Assembly (NCBI GenBank): GCA_037133055.1 | Contig: JBAXOY010000062.1 | Span: forward strand, 1 to 17,897 | Origin: Chlamydiota bacterium | Lineage (GTDB): Bacteria > Auribacterota > Tritonobacteria > UBA1439 | Length of the DNA stretch: 17,897 bases | Direction: 5' to 3' | Part shown: piece after piece, positions 555 to 9,033 of the stretch | Numbering within the stretch: the stretch's first letter is position 1 | Layout of the letters: every line of letters starts with the position of its first letter | The notes under the pieces: model-generated | The model's input: the letters and a program-made list of their open reading frames with translations, nothing else | Databases searched by the model: none | Told to the model about the DNA's origin: nothing | Position numbers and translations under genes: made by a program

Positions 555-2216
555 ATGAAACAATGCACCCGTCTCGTACTGGGGATGGCGCTTGTCGCCC
601 TCCCCTCATTTCTCGCGGCCGCGGCGGAGAAATCCCCCCCGGTGAAGTCGGACATCACGGCCGTCACGGTGTACACGGACCGGGCGCTGGTGACGCGCCG
701 GGCGGAGCTGAAGCTCGAGGCCGGGCAGCAGCCGGCGGTCTTCGCCGGACTGCCGGCGGGGCTCGTCGAAAGCTCGCTGCGCGCGGGGGGAAGGGGATCG
801 GCGAGGGTGGCGATACTGGGGACGGAGATGGAGCCCGAGTACCTCACCGAGGCGAAGGACGCGCGCGTGAAGGAGCTCGAGAAGGAGATCGAGGGCCTCG
901 AAGACAAGGCGCGCGGCATCGAGGACAGCGGGAAGGCGGTGGAGCTCCAGATGAAGTTCGTCGAGTCGATCAAGTCCTCGATGGCGGAGGGGATCTCGAA
1001 GGAGATGCTCCTGAAGCCGCCGACCCCCGCCGAGTGGGGCAAGGTGGTCGCGTACCTCGGCTCCGAGAGCGACGCGCTCGCCCCGCGTCTCCGGGAGACG
1101 CAGCGGAAGAGCCGCGACGTGAAGAAGGAGATCGACGCGGCGAAGAAGAAGCTCGAACGGATCGTCTCTGAATCGCCGAAGGAGCAGAAGAACGTCCGGG
1201 TGACGCTCGACGCGGCGCAGGGGGGCGACTTTACGCTGGAGCTCACCTACATGGTGTACGGGGCGGGCTGGCAGCCGCTCTACGACGCGCGGGCGGAGCG
1301 CGAGTCGGGGAAGGCGGAGCTCACTTACTGCGGGCAGGTCCGGCAGAACACGGGCGAGGACTGGAGCGACGTGACGCTCGAACTCTCGACCGCCCGGCCC
1401 TCCGTGAGCGGCCGTCCGCCCGATCTCGATCCGTGGTACATCGAATTCGAGAGGCCCAGGGTGATGGCCAACAAGATGATGCGCATGGCCGCCGCGCCGA
1501 TGGCCGAGAAGGCGGATCTTTTGCAGGCATCCGAACAAGGCAGGGGCGGGGCGGAGGCCGAGGTCGCCACCGCAGAGGTCGGGCGCCGCGGCGAAGCGGT
1601 CACCTTCACCGTGAAGCGGAAGGAGACGGTGCCGAGCGACAACAACCCGCACAAGACCGTGGTCGCGACGTTCCCGCTCAAGGCCGAGTACGAGTATTTC
1701 ACCGTGCCGAAGCTCGCCGAGTTCGCCTACCTGATGGCGAACGTGAAGAACGAGACCGGCTTCCCGCTCCTCGCGGGCGAGGTGCAGGTCTTCCTCGGGC
1801 CCGAGTTCGTCGGGACCTCGTCGATGGAGCACGTGGCGAACGGCGAGACGTTCCACCTCTACCTCGGCATCGACGAGGGGATCCGCGTGAAGCGGAAGCT
1901 CCTCTCGGCGGAGGCGGAGAAGGGGCTGGTGCGCCGCCGGACGGGCTTCAGGAGCTACCGCTACCGGATCGAACTCGAGAACCTCAAGGAGAAGAAGGAG
2001 ACGGTCACCGTCCTCGACCAGGAGCCGGTCTCGAAATCCCCCGACATCGCCGTGGCGCTCGGCTCCGCGACGCCCGAGCCGGTGAAGATCGAGGAGCGGG
2101 AGAAGCCGGGGACGCTCGCGTGGAAGCTCGACCTCGAGCCGAAGGAGAAGAAGACGATCGAGTTCGAGTTTACGGTCCAGTACCCGAAAGACCGCAAGAT
2201 CGAGGGGCTGGAATAA
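555..2216 (+). CDS. Exported DUF4140/DUF4139 protein (MuiA / TIGR02231-like)
   Basis: AGGAGGAG RBS before ATG 555; signal peptide; motifs ITAVTVYTDRALVTR, coiled coil, AGWQPLYDAR, VRQNTGEDWSDVTLELSTARP, LYLGIDEGIRVKR. Confidence 0.9.
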   Translation: MKQCTRLVLGMALVALPSFLAAAAEKSPPVKSDITAVTVYTDRALVTRRAELKLEAGQQPAVFAGLPAGLVESSLRAGGRGSARVAILGTEMEPEYLTEAKDARVKELEKEIEGLEDKARGIEDSGKAVELQMKFVESIKSSMAEGISKEMLLKPPTPAEWGKVVAYLGSESDALAPRLRETQRKSRDVKKEIDAAKKKLERIVSESPKEQKNVRVTLDAAQGGDFTLELTYMVYGAGWQPLYDARAERESGKAELTYCGQVRQNTGEDWSDVTLELSTARPSVSGRPPDLDPWYIEFERPRVMANKMMRMAAAPMAEKADLLQASEQGRGGAEAEVATAEVGRRGEAVTFTVKRKETVPSDNNPHKTVVATFPLKAEYEYFTVPKLAEFAYLMANVKNETGFPLLAGEVQVFLGPEFVGTSSMEHVANGETFHLYLGIDEGIRVKRKLLSAEAEKGLVRRRTGFRSYRYRIELENLKEKKETVTVLDQEPVSKSPDIAVALGSATPEPVKIEEREKPGTLAWKLDLEPKEKKTIEFEFTVQYPKDRKIEGLE

Positions 2217-2228
2217 AGGGAGGTGAAG

Positions 2229-2927
2229 ATGAACAAGGCAGGGGTGGAGATGGTGCTGATCGAGCCGGGGGAGTTCATGATGGGGAGCCCGGAGACGGAG
2301 AAGGAGAGATCGAGCGACGAAGGCCCCTGGCACAAGGTGAAGATCACGAAGCCGTATTATCTCGGTAAATACGAAGTGACACAGGCGCAGTACGAGGCAG
2401 TGATGGGAAATAACCCGAGCTATTTCAAGGGAGAGAATAACCCCGTGGAGAGAGTTTCCTGGAACGATGCGAAGGCATTCTGCGGCAAAATCGGATGCCG
2501 TCTGCCGACGGAGGCGGAGTGGGAGTACGCCTGCCGGGCGGGGACGACGACGCCGTTCTCATTTGGGGAGACCATCTCGACGGATCAGGCGAACTACGAC
2601 GGTAACTACACCGTGATCAAGGGGGTGTATGGGGTGTATCGGCAAAAGACTATGCCCGTGGGGAGTTTTCAGCCGAATGCCTGGGGTCTGTACGACATGC
2701 ACGGGAACGTGTGGGAGTGGTGCGAGGATGTGTGTCACGACAGCTACGCGGGTGCGCCGACGGATGGGAGCGCATGGACTACGGGGGGGCTCTATCAGGA
2801 GTGGGGAATCCTTCGCGGGGGCTCCTGGGTCAGCCCTCCCCATCTCCTGCGTTCGGCGAACCGCGACGGGATCGTTCCCGGGCTCAGTTACGACAGGCCC
2901 GGGTTTCGTGCCGCCTGGACTCCATAA
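2229..2927 (+). CDS. FGE-sulfatase (SUMF1/CLec-fold) domain protein; probable DGR target gene
   Basis: PGEFMMGS, KYEVTQAQY, PVERVSWNDA, RLPTEAEWEYACRAG, PNAWGLYDMHGNVWEWC, RGGSW...RSANR...GFR; GGAGGT RBS before ATG 2229 (GTG 2223 is an alternative); immediately upstream of avd. Confidence 0.92.
   Translation: MNKAGVEMVLIEPGEFMMGSPETEKERSSDEGPWHKVKITKPYYLGKYEVTQAQYEAVMGNNPSYFKGENNPVERVSWNDAKAFCGKIGCRLPTEAEWEYACRAGTTTPFSFGETISTDQANYDGNYTVIKGVYGVYRQKTMPVGSFQPNAWGLYDMHGNVWEWCEDVCHDSYAGAPTDGSAWTTGGLYQEWGILRGGSWVSPPHLLRSANRDGIVPGLSYDRPGFRAAWTP
2802..2927 (+). other. Putative DGR variable region (VR) and IMH at the 3' end of the target gene
   Basis: RGGSW-VSPPHL-LRSANR-DGIVPGLSYDRP-GFR occupies the canonical CLec VR position; codons at the usual Asn positions are nearly all NNY; boundaries approximate because no TR is available. 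Confidence 0.6.
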
Positions 2928-2930
2928 AAG

Positions 2931-2972
2931 TTACCCTTTGCTCTTTTACGCTTTTACCCTTTGCGGTTTTTT
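2931..2972 (+). repeat. Pyrimidine-rich ~8-nt-period imperfect tandem repeat after the VR
   Basis: TTACCCTT TGCTCTTT TACGCTTT TACCCTTT GCGGTTTT; TTACCCTTTGC occurs at 2931-2941 and 2954-2964. Confidence 0.7.
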
Positions 2973-2987
2973 GAAAGGCACGAGCAC

Positions 2988-3344
2988 ATGAGCATTGAAA
3001 AACCGGGCGGCGTGATGGAGATCGAGGTCATCACGCGGATGTACGACTTCCTGCTCTGGCTCCTGCCCCACGTGGAGAAGTTCCCGCGTTCGCACAAGTT
3101 CACGATGGGCGACAGGATCGAGAACGCGGGTCTTGATGTGCTGGATCTTCTCCTCGATGCGAAATACAGGTCGCTGAAAGTCGATGTGCTCAGGAGAGCG
3201 AACCTGAAACTCGAGCAGTTGCGGTTTCTTCTCAGGTTGAGCAAGGACCTGCGCATGCTGAACGTGAAATCCTACCTTCACGGGTGCCGCCTTTTGAACG
3301 AGGTGGGAAAACAGGTCGGCGGGTGGATAAAGAGCGCGAAATGA
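2988..3344 (+). CDS. avd: DGR accessory variability determinant Avd (four-helix bundle)
   Basis: YDFLLWLLPHVEKFPRSHKFTMGDRI ... ANLKLEQLRFLLRLSKDL ... EVGKQVGGWIK is the characteristic bAvd-like pattern; basic 118-aa protein (start could be 3015). Confidence 0.9.
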   Translation: MSIEKPGGVMEIEVITRMYDFLLWLLPHVEKFPRSHKFTMGDRIENAGLDVLDLLLDAKYRSLKVDVLRRANLKLEQLRFLLRLSKDLRMLNVKSYLHGCRLLNEVGKQVGGWIKSAK

Positions 3345-3412
3345 AAAGATTCGGCGGTCTCTTCGACAAGGTCATCAGTTTCAGTTTTTTGATTTTTTTA
3401 CGACATGCGTAA
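3341..3412 (+). pseudogene. N-terminal remnant of a DGR reverse transcriptase
   Basis: ATGA overlap with the avd stop; reads MKRFGGLFDKVISF, resembling the typical DGR RT start (MKR-x-GNLF-x-KI-x-SFENL), then runs into a T-rich tract and TAA at 3410-3412. Confidence 0.7.
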
Positions 3413-3435
3413 GGCGGAGTAAAGACCTCCATATC

Positions 3436-3462
3436 CTCTGTGGGCTCTGTGCCCTCTGTGGC
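3436..3462. repeat. 9-nt-period repeat (CTCTGTGNN x3)
   Basis: CTCTGTG at 3436, 3445 and 3454. Confidence 0.75.
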
Positions 3463-3495
3463 GACAATGTACGTTTCATTTTAAGGGATAACACA

Positions 3496-4842
3496 ATGAT
3501 CGTGATGAAGTTCGGCGGCACCTCGGTGGGGGGCGCCGGGGCGATGCGGCGGGTGCGCCGGATCGTGGCGGACCGCCTTGCGCTCCGCCCCGTCGTGGTG
3601 GTGTCGGCGGTGGGCGGGATCACCAACCTTCTCCTCGAGAACGCCCAGCGCTCGCGCGAGCGCTCCCGCGAGGGGATACGGCTCCTCGAGAAGTTCTGCG
3701 CCGTCCACGACGGGATTATCCGCGAGCTCGACCTGCCGGCGGGGCTGGCGGAGGAGGGGTTCGTCCAGCTCAGGGAGCCGCTCCCCGGCGTCTACTATTT
3801 GGGCGACCTGACCTCGCGGGCGCTCGCCTATGTCGCAAGCTTCGGCGAGCGGGTTTCGGCGAAGATCGTGAGCGCCCTGTTCAACGCGGCGTGGATCCCC
3901 AGCCGCCCCTATACGGGCGCGGAGGCGGGGATCGTCACCATCGACGAGCACGGCAACGCGAGCCCGCTCCCGTCGACCTACGCCTTGATACGGAGGCGGC
4001 TCAGGGGCGTGAAGAAGCTCCCTGTGGTGACCGGCTTCATCGCCAGGAACGCGCGCGGCGAGATCACCACGCTCGGGCGCGGCGGGAGCGATTTCACCGC
4101 CGCGATCATCGGGCGCGGGGTGGGCGCGCGGGAGATACAGATCTGGACCGACGTGACCGGCATCATGACCGCCGACCCGCGCGTGGTAAAAGCGGCGCGG
4201 ACGATCCCGAAGCTCGGCTTCACCGAGGCGGCCGAGCTCGCCTACTTCGGGGCGAAGGTGCTGCACCCCCGGACGATCGAGCCGGCGGTCGAAAAGGACA
4301 TACCGGTCAGGATCCTCAACACCTTCGATCCGGACGCCGCGGGGTCGCTCGTGGTGCGCCAGGCGCCGCGGCCGCGGAACGCGATCCGCGCCATCGCCTG
4401 CAAGAAGCGCAACACCCTCTTCACCCTGCGCTCCACCCGGATGCTCGACGCGCACGGCTACCTCGCCCGGATTTTCGAGGTGTTCAAGCACTACGCCGTT
4501 CCCGTGGACCTGATCGCCACCTCGGAGGTCAGCGTCTCCGTGACGGTGGACGCGGTCGCCGCGCCGAAGCTCAAGGGGATCATCGCGGACCTCGGGCGGA
4601 TCTGCACCGCCCGCATCTACGAGAACAGGGCCATCGTCTGCCTCGTCGGGGAGGGGATCGGCGACACCCCGAACATCGCGGGGAAGATATTCAGCGCCGT
4701 CGGGCGGGCGGGGGTGAACGTCGAGATGATCTCGCAGGCGAGCTCGGCCCTGAACATAAGCTTTCTCGTGAAGGACGAGGACGCCGACGGGACGGTGCGG
4801 CTCCTGCACCGCGAGTTTTTGGAGAAGGGGCGGGGGGGATGA
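3496..4842 (+). CDS. lysC: Aspartate kinase (monofunctional, two C-terminal ACT domains)
   Basis: MKFGGTSV, VVVSA, SFGE, TTLGRGGSD, IWTDVTGIMTADPR, EAAELAYFGAKVLHP, VDLIATSEVSVS, NVEMISQ. Confidence 0.96.
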   Translation: MIVMKFGGTSVGGAGAMRRVRRIVADRLALRPVVVVSAVGGITNLLLENAQRSRERSREGIRLLEKFCAVHDGIIRELDLPAGLAEEGFVQLREPLPGVYYLGDLTSRALAYVASFGERVSAKIVSALFNAAWIPSRPYTGAEAGIVTIDEHGNASPLPSTYALIRRRLRGVKKLPVVTGFIARNARGEITTLGRGGSDFTAAIIGRGVGAREIQIWTDVTGIMTADPRVVKAARTIPKLGFTEAAELAYFGAKVLHPRTIEPAVEKDIPVRILNTFDPDAAGSLVVRQAPRPRNAIRAIACKKRNTLFTLRSTRMLDAHGYLARIFEVFKHYAVPVDLIATSEVSVSVTVDAVAAPKLKGIIADLGRICTARIYENRAIVCLVGEGIGDTPNIAGKIFSAVGRAGVNVEMISQASSALNISFLVKDEDADGTVRLLHREFLEKGRGG

Positions 4843-5457: not shown

Positions 5458-6030
5458 ATGAGTAATCGATTGTGGTGGATGAGCACGTTTGTCCTGTGGT
5501 TGATATGGCCGCTCTCCCTTCCCGCTGCAACAGGTGTGCCCGGTGCAACTTCTCACGCATGGAAACCTGCATGGCTCTCCGCCATTGAAGTCCCCGCCGA
5601 TACCGGGGAGTTGCGTGTGAATGAGGAGAACGGGAAAATAACTTCGGTGGAGGTCGAGGGTTCGCCGCTCAAAGGAGAGTTCACACGCCTTAACGGTTTC
5701 CATGCGATCACGCTAAAACGTCAATCCGGCGAGAAATTTACCTGCAGTGGCTGGATATATATAGGTATTTCAGATCCTCTCGGAACGCTGGATTGGGCTT
5801 TTGCAATAGATGACGTGACGAGTATGCCGAAGTGGGTTAAGGATGCGGCTCGCGAATGTAACAAGGCTGATGGCGGAAACATGTTCCTCCAGAAAGGAAG
5901 GGACTTTCACTCCGGCGGTGACGCGAAGCCATTCACCGGCGAGGAGTTCAGCTCGGGATGGCGATTGTTTCTTGTAGGGAAGATGGTTAAGGTCAAAGGG
6001 CGCTGGGAGTTCCAACTCACACCGCGATAG
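5458..6030 (+). CDS. Hypothetical exported protein
   Basis: 190-aa ORF with GGAGG RBS and a hydrophobic N-terminal signal-like segment; visibly AT-richer codon usage than the flanks; no family recognised. Confidence 0.6.
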   Translation: MSNRLWWMSTFVLWLIWPLSLPAATGVPGATSHAWKPAWLSAIEVPADTGELRVNEENGKITSVEVEGSPLKGEFTRLNGFHAITLKRQSGEKFTCSGWIYIGISDPLGTLDWAFAIDDVTSMPKWVKDAARECNKADGGNMFLQKGRDFHSGGDAKPFTGEEFSSGWRLFLVGKMVKVKGRWEFQLTPR

Positions 6031-6073: not shown

Positions 6074-6093
6074 AGTAATCGGAGGTGAGGATC

Positions 6094-6300
6094 ATGAGGG
6101 AAGTCATGATTTATCGCGGCGAAGACGGGTTTTGGGTGGCCGAATGCCCCAGCCTTCCCGGCTGTATCAGCCAGGGATCGACAAAAGAAGAGACGATTGC
6201 AAACATTAAAGAGGCGATCGAAGGGTATGTCGGGGCATTGAAAGAGGATAACCTGCCCATTCCTCCTGAAAATTTCGAGGCATTCGTGGTAGCGGTATGA
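6094..6300 (+). CDS. hicB: HicB family antitoxin (short form, no DNA-binding domain)
   Basis: EDGFWVAECPSLPGCISQGSTKEETIANIKEAIEGY; overlaps hicA (ATGA); GTG 6085 is an alternative start. Confidence 0.92.
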   Translation: MREVMIYRGEDGFWVAECPSLPGCISQGSTKEETIANIKEAIEGYVGALKEDNLPIPPENFEAFVVAV

Positions 6301-6518
6301 CCCAGCTCCCCAGGATCTCCGGCGCCGAGTGCGTCAAGGCTCTGTGTAAAGCGGGGTTTTATTTCAAGCGTCAGCACGGAAGCCACATTATCCTTCGCAG
6401 AGATAATCCTTTCGCTCAACTCGTTGTGCCGAATCATAAAGAACTGGACCGGGGAACACTCAGGGCAATAATCCGTCAGGCCGATCTGTCTCTCGATCAA
6501 TTTATCCGGCTGCTGTAA
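6297..6518 (+). CDS. hicA: HicA family toxin (dsRBD-like mRNA interferase)
   Basis: KAL-x-KAGF...RQHGSH, VVPNHKEL..GTLRAIIRQA. Confidence 0.93.
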   Translation: MTQLPRISGAECVKALCKAGFYFKRQHGSHIILRRDNPFAQLVVPNHKELDRGTLRAIIRQADLSLDQFIRLL

Positions 6519-8335: not shown

Positions 8336-9033
8336 GAACGGGCGGAGATCCCGCCTCCGCGGAGATTGATCCAGAACGAGGCGAGGAAGTAGTAGCAGGG
8401 ATAGGCGAGGGAGAGGCGGACGAGAAGGGGGTCGGCCCGTTTCGCGGTGAAGACCAGCCAGAGGATCAGCGCCGCCCAGGCCATGGTCAGGGGCGCGGTG
8501 AATGCCCGCAGAGGTTTCGTCTTCAACGGGTCGATATACTTGATGGGGACGAAGACCATCAGGGAGAATCCGAGGACGACCGCGAGGTTGAACGCCCTCC
8601 CGCAGTGGAGCAGGAACAGGTAGAAGACCACGAAGTTCCAGTAGCTGGGGAACCCCGTGAAAAAACCGTCGTCCGTCTTCGCGCGCTCCTGGCAGAACCC
8701 GTAGGCGCTCGCAACGATGGGGATGAGCGCCCAGGCCCACTGCCGTTCGGGGAGCATCTCCGCGAAGGCGAGGATGAACGCGGGGACGAGGACGAAGTTG
8801 AGGAAGTCGACGAGGTCGTCGAGCCTCCTCCCGTTGAACTCCGGGAGGACCCGGGCGGTGCGGAAGCGGCGGGCGAGCGGGCCGTCGGTGGCGTCGATGA
8901 TCGTGGAGAGCGCGAGGAGGAGGAACGCCTGGCGCGGGCTCTCGTCGAGCCATGCCCGCACGGCGAAGAAGCCGGTCGCGAGGCCGAGCGCAGTGTAGGC
9001 CTGGACGCCCCAGGCGATCAGTTTCGGGTTCAT
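8320..9033 (-). CDS. pcs: Phosphatidylcholine synthase (CDP-alcohol phosphatidyltransferase family)
   Basis: AWGVQAYTALG N-terminus, D-x-x-D-G-x-x-A-R...G-x-x-L-D-x-x-x-D motif, ASAYGFC..KT.DGFFTGFPSYWN, VFVPIKY; Pcs-type rather than PgsA/PssA-type. Confidence 0.82.
   Translation of the reverse strand: MNPKLIAWGVQAYTALGLATGFFAVRAWLDESPRQAFLLLALSTIIDATDGPLARRFRTARVLPEFNGRRLDDLVDFLNFVLVPAFILAFAEMLPERQWAWALIPIVASAYGFCQERAKTDDGFFTGFPSYWNFVVFYLFLLHCGRAFNLAVVLGFSLMVFVPIKYIDPLKTKPLRAFTAPLTMAWAALILWLVFTAKRADPLLVRLSLAYPCYYFLASFWINLRGGGISARSGVRP

Follow-up and report, generated by a model that had tools for sequence, protein, structure and literature searches.

Organization of the locus

The window analyzed here (17,897 nt) is the whole of contig C62 of the draft genome G000, which comprises 2.99 Mb in 191 contigs and is 92.2% complete and 0.7% contaminated. 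Between a gene of the MuiA family and the aspartate kinase gene lysC, we found a gene coding for a stand-alone FGE-sulfatase/CLec-fold protein, an intact avd, and a very short open reading frame (ORF) that starts like the reverse transcriptase (RT) of a diversity-generating retroelement (DGR) and then breaks off into a T-rich sequence (Table 1). The initial annotation, made from the sequence alone, had read this arrangement as a decayed DGR with target gene and avd intact, the RT cut to about 14 codons and the TR absent.

Table 1. Features of the locus, in coordinates of the window
Feature	Position	Strand	Evidence
Host gene DUF4139/DUF4140 (MuiA family), left flank	555..2216	+	Pfam, TIGR02231
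Former DGR target, stand-alone FGE-sulfatase/CLec-fold protein, 232 aa, open frame	2229..2927	+	PF03781, TvpA match
Presumed variable repeat (VR), including its 3' end; borders approximate	2802..2927	+	Gapless alignment to foreign TRs
Target-avd spacer, pyrimidine-rich, of DGR type, without GC-rich hairpin	2928..2987	+	Matches pieces of other lake-run elements
avd, intact, 118 aa, predicted pI 9.8	2988..3344	+	NF033474, PF22296
First 13 codons of a DGR reverse transcriptase, ATGA-coupled to avd	3341..3379	+	RT N-terminus profile, sister element
Post-break T-rich sequence, ends the stub ORF at TAA 3410-3412	3380..3423	+	Sequence; contigs bridge it unchanged
Host interspersed repeat arm	3424..3466	+	Many copies in G000 and G004; alignment with G002
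Host aspartate kinase lysC, right flank	3496..4842	+	PF00696 + ACT domains, TIGR00657

The target gene and its presumed variable repeat

In a Pfam profile search, the target product matched FGE-sulfatase (PF03781) with 192.7 bits over profile positions 4 to 254 of 255, and it resembles the Treponema DGR target TvpA (2Y3C; E 3.9e-25). Neither a stop nor a frameshift was found in its frame, the letters GGAGG at 2219-2223 read as a ribosome-binding sequence ahead of it, and no signal peptide was seen in its sequence. The first 42 codons (2229-2354) have a host-like GC3 (39/42, versus 141/190 in the remainder, with a boundary picked post hoc), and positions 2222-2374 match an FGE gene of the relative G004 at 70%. 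Judging by composition and likeness, the front end of the target may come from a family-resident gene.

At the other end of the gene lies the presumed VR, whose borders are approximate because the cognate TR is missing. Its stretch from the RGGSW to the GFR motif has the same length as the TRs of the DGRs G024 and L024, and the gapless alignment of the target 3' end with the L024 TR places mismatches at 24 of 32 adenines versus 19 of 70 other positions (p 9e-6). Fifteen control FGE genes, some of which may themselves be DGR targets, show a similar adenine bias, and the VR stands only weakly above them. It has the fewest non-adenine mismatches to foreign TRs (17/68, compared with 19 to 36 in the controls) and is tied for the most pyrimidine third positions (12/13, equalled by three of the 15 controls). 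That the tip of the target was once a VR thus rests more on its context than on its own letters.

A GC-rich hairpin behind the VR is described as required for efficient homing in the Bordetella phage (Guo et al. 2011, PMC3240598). No such stem appeared in a DNA fold of 2915-2995, and the target-avd spacer folds with -4.5 kcal/mol versus -13.6 for the spacer of G024. This is perhaps no sign of decay, since the sister element described below seems to lack a hairpin too. Further elements in the metagenome runs X6 and X8 have a post-target spacer in common with window positions 2928-2976. One of them, in X8, has a target end like that of the window and no avd after it, and might serve a related DGR as remote target; another, in X6, runs on from the same spacer into a short GC hairpin.

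Avd and the remnant of the reverse transcriptase

An FGE gene lying beside an IVS-type four-helix bundle, with a short ORF behind it by chance, would resemble this locus without being a DGR, and bundles of this type are common in the family and give weak matches to the Avd model. The product of 2988-3344 nevertheless passes both curated Avd cut-offs, with 109.9 bits against the NCBI DGR-Avd model NF033474 (cut-off 80) and 73.9 against PF22296 (bAvd; cut-off 40), while it stays below that of the IVS family PF05635 (17.7, cut-off 33.8) and has no match to the IVS bundle model TIGR02436 at E 0.1. For a genuine IVS bundle, taken from G006, the scores are reversed (144 bits for TIGR02436 and 52 for the Avd model). 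These scores, together with the RT stub and the sister element, uphold the assignment of the small protein as Avd and leave a non-DGR origin a practically negligible chance. The PF22296 domain was present in 120 of 120 Avd homologues among the matches listed; the nearest is protein P0002 (81% identical), and the Avd proteins of the B2 DGRs G024 and Prosthecochloris pPAES01 are 40 to 45% identical. Scans with six exact Avd peptide patterns, all of which would miss a P0002-like sister, recovered two loci in genome contigs and three in metagenome contigs (one contig being common to both) and none in viral contigs. No Avd match was found in a phage collection, six plasmid records matched (pPAES01 is the one examined), and phmmer found no solved Avd structure.

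The stop of avd and the next start overlap as ATGA (3341-3344), an overlap also seen in three RT-bearing loci (L022, L024 and pPAES01). The ORF that begins there has 23 codons (3341-3412), with RT homology over codons 1 to 13 (to 3379) and possibly codon 14 (Phe). We built a profile from residues 1 to 25 of five natural DGR RTs, leaving the window sequence out, and searched the genome in six frames with it; the stub came first among 72,423 segments (E 0.0038; the next scored 1.7), and its likeness to an RT exceeds chance. At the break, located at about 3379-3382, a 6-base unit occurs twice in tandem (3375-3386), which could be either a footprint of slippage or a coincidence.

A relative of the element is present in lake metagenomes. 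In run X1, a 546-nt contig tracks window positions 2984-3379 (396 nt) with 59 differences and two gaps and then continues for 148 unrelated bases. This sister is about 85% identical in DNA over avd and the start of the RT (a similar piece occurs in X4), and its listed substitutions agree with protein P0002; the Avd of the sister, being P0002-like, is 81% identical to that of the window. The first 30 sister bases past the break are in frame with the stub and were translated by hand to an ENL-type motif, which follows the same position in the five natural DGR RTs. In the sister (X1, X4, X8), known from an assembled 546 nt and read for 30 nt past the break, the RT frame thus runs on past 3379, and therefore the RT of the window breaks after codon 13, or 14 counting the Phe. 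The truncation originally reported stands, with its length refined from about 14 to 13 codons in an ORF of 23. So does the ATGA-coupled RT remnant, being the top profile match genome-wide and continued as an RT in the sister, and with it the remark that the TR did not lie between avd and RT, which overlap directly at an RT-like start.

The junction and the insertion site

The metagenome runs that hold this stretch of the window are mainly from freshwater and lakes, and their contigs bear on whether the break is an assembly artifact. Probable errors do lie nearby, since the run contigs covering lysC disagree with the window at 11 of its positions (3754-3941). Contigs of four of the seven runs compared (X1, X3, X4 and X5), however, bridge position 3379 with at least 31 bases on each side and no differences there, so that an artifact is extremely improbable; the T-rich junction is real and not a misassembly. 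The X2 contig stops 29 bases past 3379, that of X6 ends at 3367, and X8 has no contig of the window allele across 2775-3423. On the left, the join to the DUF4139 gene is bridged by contigs in X1, X2 and X4. The 11 lysC positions are likely assembly errors in a low-coverage stretch; X1, which may be the source run, also disagrees at the first four of them.

The DUF4139 gene and lysC are neighbors in four of five relatives (G001-G004), with a spacer of 28 to 222 nt versus 1279 nt in the window, whereas G005 had no match to either gene. Because the two genes adjoin directly in these four relatives, the 1.2 kb between them in the window is a lineage-specific insert. Its left border lies 12 nt past the DUF4139 stop. 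On the right, the DUF4139-lysC spacer of G002 aligns with the window from about 3424 on, and since the repeat arm found there is also in that spacer, host DNA has resumed by 3424. The repeat arm has 64 pattern matches in G000, only four of them with an opposite arm within 250 nt upstream.

An Avd above the cut-off occurs in three of 79 genomes of the phylum, the target had no match at E 1e-30 in seven other genomes of the family, and the GC content of avd (0.55) and of the target (0.60) is lower than that of the flanks (0.67 and 0.69). For these reasons the element is probably a horizontal insert. In G002, about 4.6 kb of extra genes lie between DUF2062 and DUF4139 (L046:890-5200), so that insertion into this operon region is not confined to the lineage of the window. 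Elsewhere in the window, a HicB-HicA toxin-antitoxin pair occupies 6085-6518, beside a 190-aa ORF (5458-6030) that matched nothing in Pfam.

No promoter or terminator pattern was found between 2216 and 3496. Since no terminator pattern separates the neighbors, the target is likely read through from the DUF4139 gene and co-transcribed with it and the genes around it; a small RNA run from the sample of X1 contains almost no words of 2000-3700 and is uninformative on expression. Selection for renewed read-through into lysC, as a cause of the deletion, found no support, given the lack of promoter or terminator patterns and the existence of a second aspartate kinase homologue, on contig C47.

Search for an RT and a TR elsewhere in the genome

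Searches of G000 for an RT came up empty with PF00078, with the RT of the G024 DGR as query (a query that detected RTs in 16 of 79 genomes from the phylum) and with a profile run unfiltered (best E 2.5). The initial annotation had found no TR copy in the window; this was confirmed and widened to the whole assembly, as neither blastn of the VR against the window and the 2.99 Mb (92.2% complete) nor an adenine-tolerant scan of the assembly, in which genome adenines match anything, nor an AAY-density scan revealed one. An nhmmer TR profile failed to recover the VR itself and carries little weight. The only candidate in the genome, on C38 near 8564-8623, was rejected as a chance match in a simple repeat (8/39 non-adenine mismatches). 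Neither a second avd nor a second FGE target gene was found in G000. As the assembly lacks about 8% of the genome, the negative result for RT and TR falls short of proof.

The presumed VR (2802-2927) is free of differences in X1, X2, X3, X5 and X6 over its whole length and in X4 from 2833 onward, and the run contigs pass through it unbroken. These runs come from studies P1 to P5 (2018-2020); X1 is possibly the sample from which the genome came, the 2018 studies could belong to a single campaign, and the studies may share a lake. Their contigs are consensus sequences at a depth of 3 to 7, from which rare variants drop out. The comparison shows that the VR is a stable majority allele, rare variants being outside the reach of contigs. 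With a read-based test, DGR activity is described as underdetected even at 20-50x (Roux 2021, PMC8144416).

The same data bear on whether the target could be a remote one, for which an RT and a TR at another place in the cell would still supply variation in trans, with the avd of the window as helper. Service in trans is reported for incomplete loci in Thiohalocapsa PB-PSB1 (Dore et al. 2024, PMC10907252), the assembly is incomplete, a close RT-bearing sister lives in the same waters, and the Avd is intact. Against it, neither an RT nor a TR occurs in the 2.99 Mb, and the VR is constant across runs. The sister does not appear in the X5 and X6 listings, where the window locus is present at depth 3 to 6, and its pieces occur in X8 without the window locus, so that it probably resides in another genome. 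A putative piece of the sister VR differs from the window VR, by eye, at four of nine third codon positions, and TRs hold zero to two third-position adenines in 33 codons, so one TR is unlikely to serve both VRs. The lack of a GC-rich hairpin after the VR also speaks against homing here, with the reservation that the sister seems to lack it too. We consider service in trans quite improbable. The suggestion that an intact avd keeps this option open holds to that small extent only, and the intact gene is not evidence of use in trans, because it is expected after a recent loss.

Comparison with complete and degenerate DGRs

Mutagenic retrohoming requires TR-RNA, RT and Avd, according to Wu et al. 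(2018, PMC5758913), whose B2 DGRs with FGE/CLec targets have, likewise, an upstream target, a pyrimidine-rich spacer, avd and an overlapping RT start. Our B2 comparison loci were G024 (L045) and the Prosthecochloris aestuarii plasmid pPAES01 (NC_011061.1, L047). Related loci do carry an RT after avd, directly behind it in five of the eight distinct Avd loci examined (G024, G040, L022, L024 and pPAES01); in L021 the RT is upstream on the opposite strand, and L020 and G047 have no RT nearby. In complete target-avd-RT-TR loci, VR/TR mismatches fall at TR adenines in 13 of 13 cases (G024) and 8 of 8 (pPAES01). Judging by G024, G040, L024 and pPAES01, the TR of the ancestor would have lain downstream of the RT, and measured against complete loci about 1.3 kb is therefore missing in the window. 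The window differs from B2 DGRs in that its RT ends after 13 codons and its TR is absent; its target, unlike the B2 comparison targets, is a stand-alone domain without a PEP-CTERM tail or N-terminal domains, and the locus has no HRDC gene such as that of pPAES01.

Some of the loci compared have peculiarities of their own. The avd of L020:132-470, from a Planctomycetota MAG (L023 is on the same contig), is cut after about 75 residues and has no RT behind it, which makes it another decayed DGR. L043 (G047:C277, reverse strand) has a VR, a TR and an avd, and of its 28 mismatches 21 fall at TR adenines; the 6.8 kb searched around them showed no RT. The TR of pPAES01 (L047:5374-5490) is apparently some 24 nt shorter than the two VRs, as though a cut between repeated runs of Asn codons had removed the difference.

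Truncated or degenerate DGRs are already well documented. Wu et al. (2018, PMC5758913) dropped more than half of their candidates because of stops, truncations, poor repeats or short contigs. Thiohalocapsa PB-PSB1 is described as holding degenerate DGR loci, some served in trans, with DGR 1 invariant (Dore et al. 2024, PMC10907252). As in the window, key machinery there is missing or pseudogenized and one locus is without variation; the same genome is reported to keep a complete DGR per class, with some service in trans, whereas none was found in G000. In Nostoc PCC 7120, all3226 is an orphan variable-protein paralogue, for which removal of the machinery after selection has been proposed (Vallota-Eastman et al. 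2020, PMC7517822); as described, that genome retains a DGR, while the window instead keeps avd and an RT stub beside the target. Against this background, the locus is a case of ordinary decay.

Origin and fate of the element

We conclude that the locus is very probably the inactive remnant of a target-avd-RT-TR (B2) DGR in a host operon, the variable end of its target being likely frozen, since the RT stops after 13 codons and no TR was found. The agreement of Avd, RT stub, sister and complete loci bears out what was proposed initially, namely that the locus derives from a DGR, that its order was avd-RT-(TR) and that both RT and TR have been lost. Of the two outcomes then left side by side, the frozen variant is favored, and the absence of RT and TR from the assembly together with the unvaried VR speaks against a target served in trans.

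A complete B2 element would have entered between DUF4139 and lysC in the lineage of the window, where it would have rewritten the tip of the target by adenine-directed mutagenic retrohoming until one deletion removed the roughly 1.3 kb of RT body, TR and flanking RNA. In another course of events, the fragment was truncated before it arrived, by partial horizontal transfer or as a partial copy, and this site never saw any activity of the element. This would fit the absence of an intact allele at the site from the contigs of X1, X5, X6 and X8 (the four runs with a full listing of loose contig ends), the lack of a second target or avd copy in the genome, the left border next to the DUF4139 stop, and the fact that no transposase or integrase was recognized among the nine window genes scanned. 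The origin of the 44 nt after the break is unassigned, which counts against it indirectly, and two degenerate loci of PB-PSB1 are described as having intact structural variants, so that decay in place does occur (Dore et al. 2024, PMC10907252). We therefore regard arrival in truncated form as unlikely, if a reading to be taken seriously, and deletion in place as reasonably probable.

Structural variants of that kind also suggest a mixed population, with the deletion in most cells and an intact, active element at the same site in a minority; contigs lose rare alleles. In X1, X5, X6 and X8, however, no contig of at least 99% identity departs from the window at the break, and only the 85% sister does. 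The comparison of contigs at 80% likeness was dominated by FGE genes of other organisms and listed 15 of 44 joints, so that an empty-site allele may also exist in the lakes. A mixed population appears highly improbable.

With the RT and the TR-RNA gone, the cassette would no longer be able to diversify its target, and Avd would lack a partner. A recent loss is likely the only reason why avd is still whole. What is left of the target's role would be that of an ordinary cytoplasmic protein of the CLec fold, binding a ligand through a single, invariable surface. The deletion may instead have been a selected lock-in, or domestication, in which the host removed RT and template to keep one winning lectin-fold variant; the target would then work in the DUF4139-lysC operon together with Avd, which, without an RT, would have taken on a new role in binding nucleic acids. 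Lake samples over three years show the deleted form and no other. We see no more than a small chance of a lock-in; if true, it would be a natural test case for the removal of a DGR once a good variant has been found.

On its own the locus matters little, being one more decayed DGR. What modest value it has is that of a clean specimen: the break point is defined, relatives show the empty site, a sister has an RT, and lakes were sampled repeatedly. Should the target and Avd turn out to be expressed and subject to selection, the proposal that DGR variants become locked in could be tested here.
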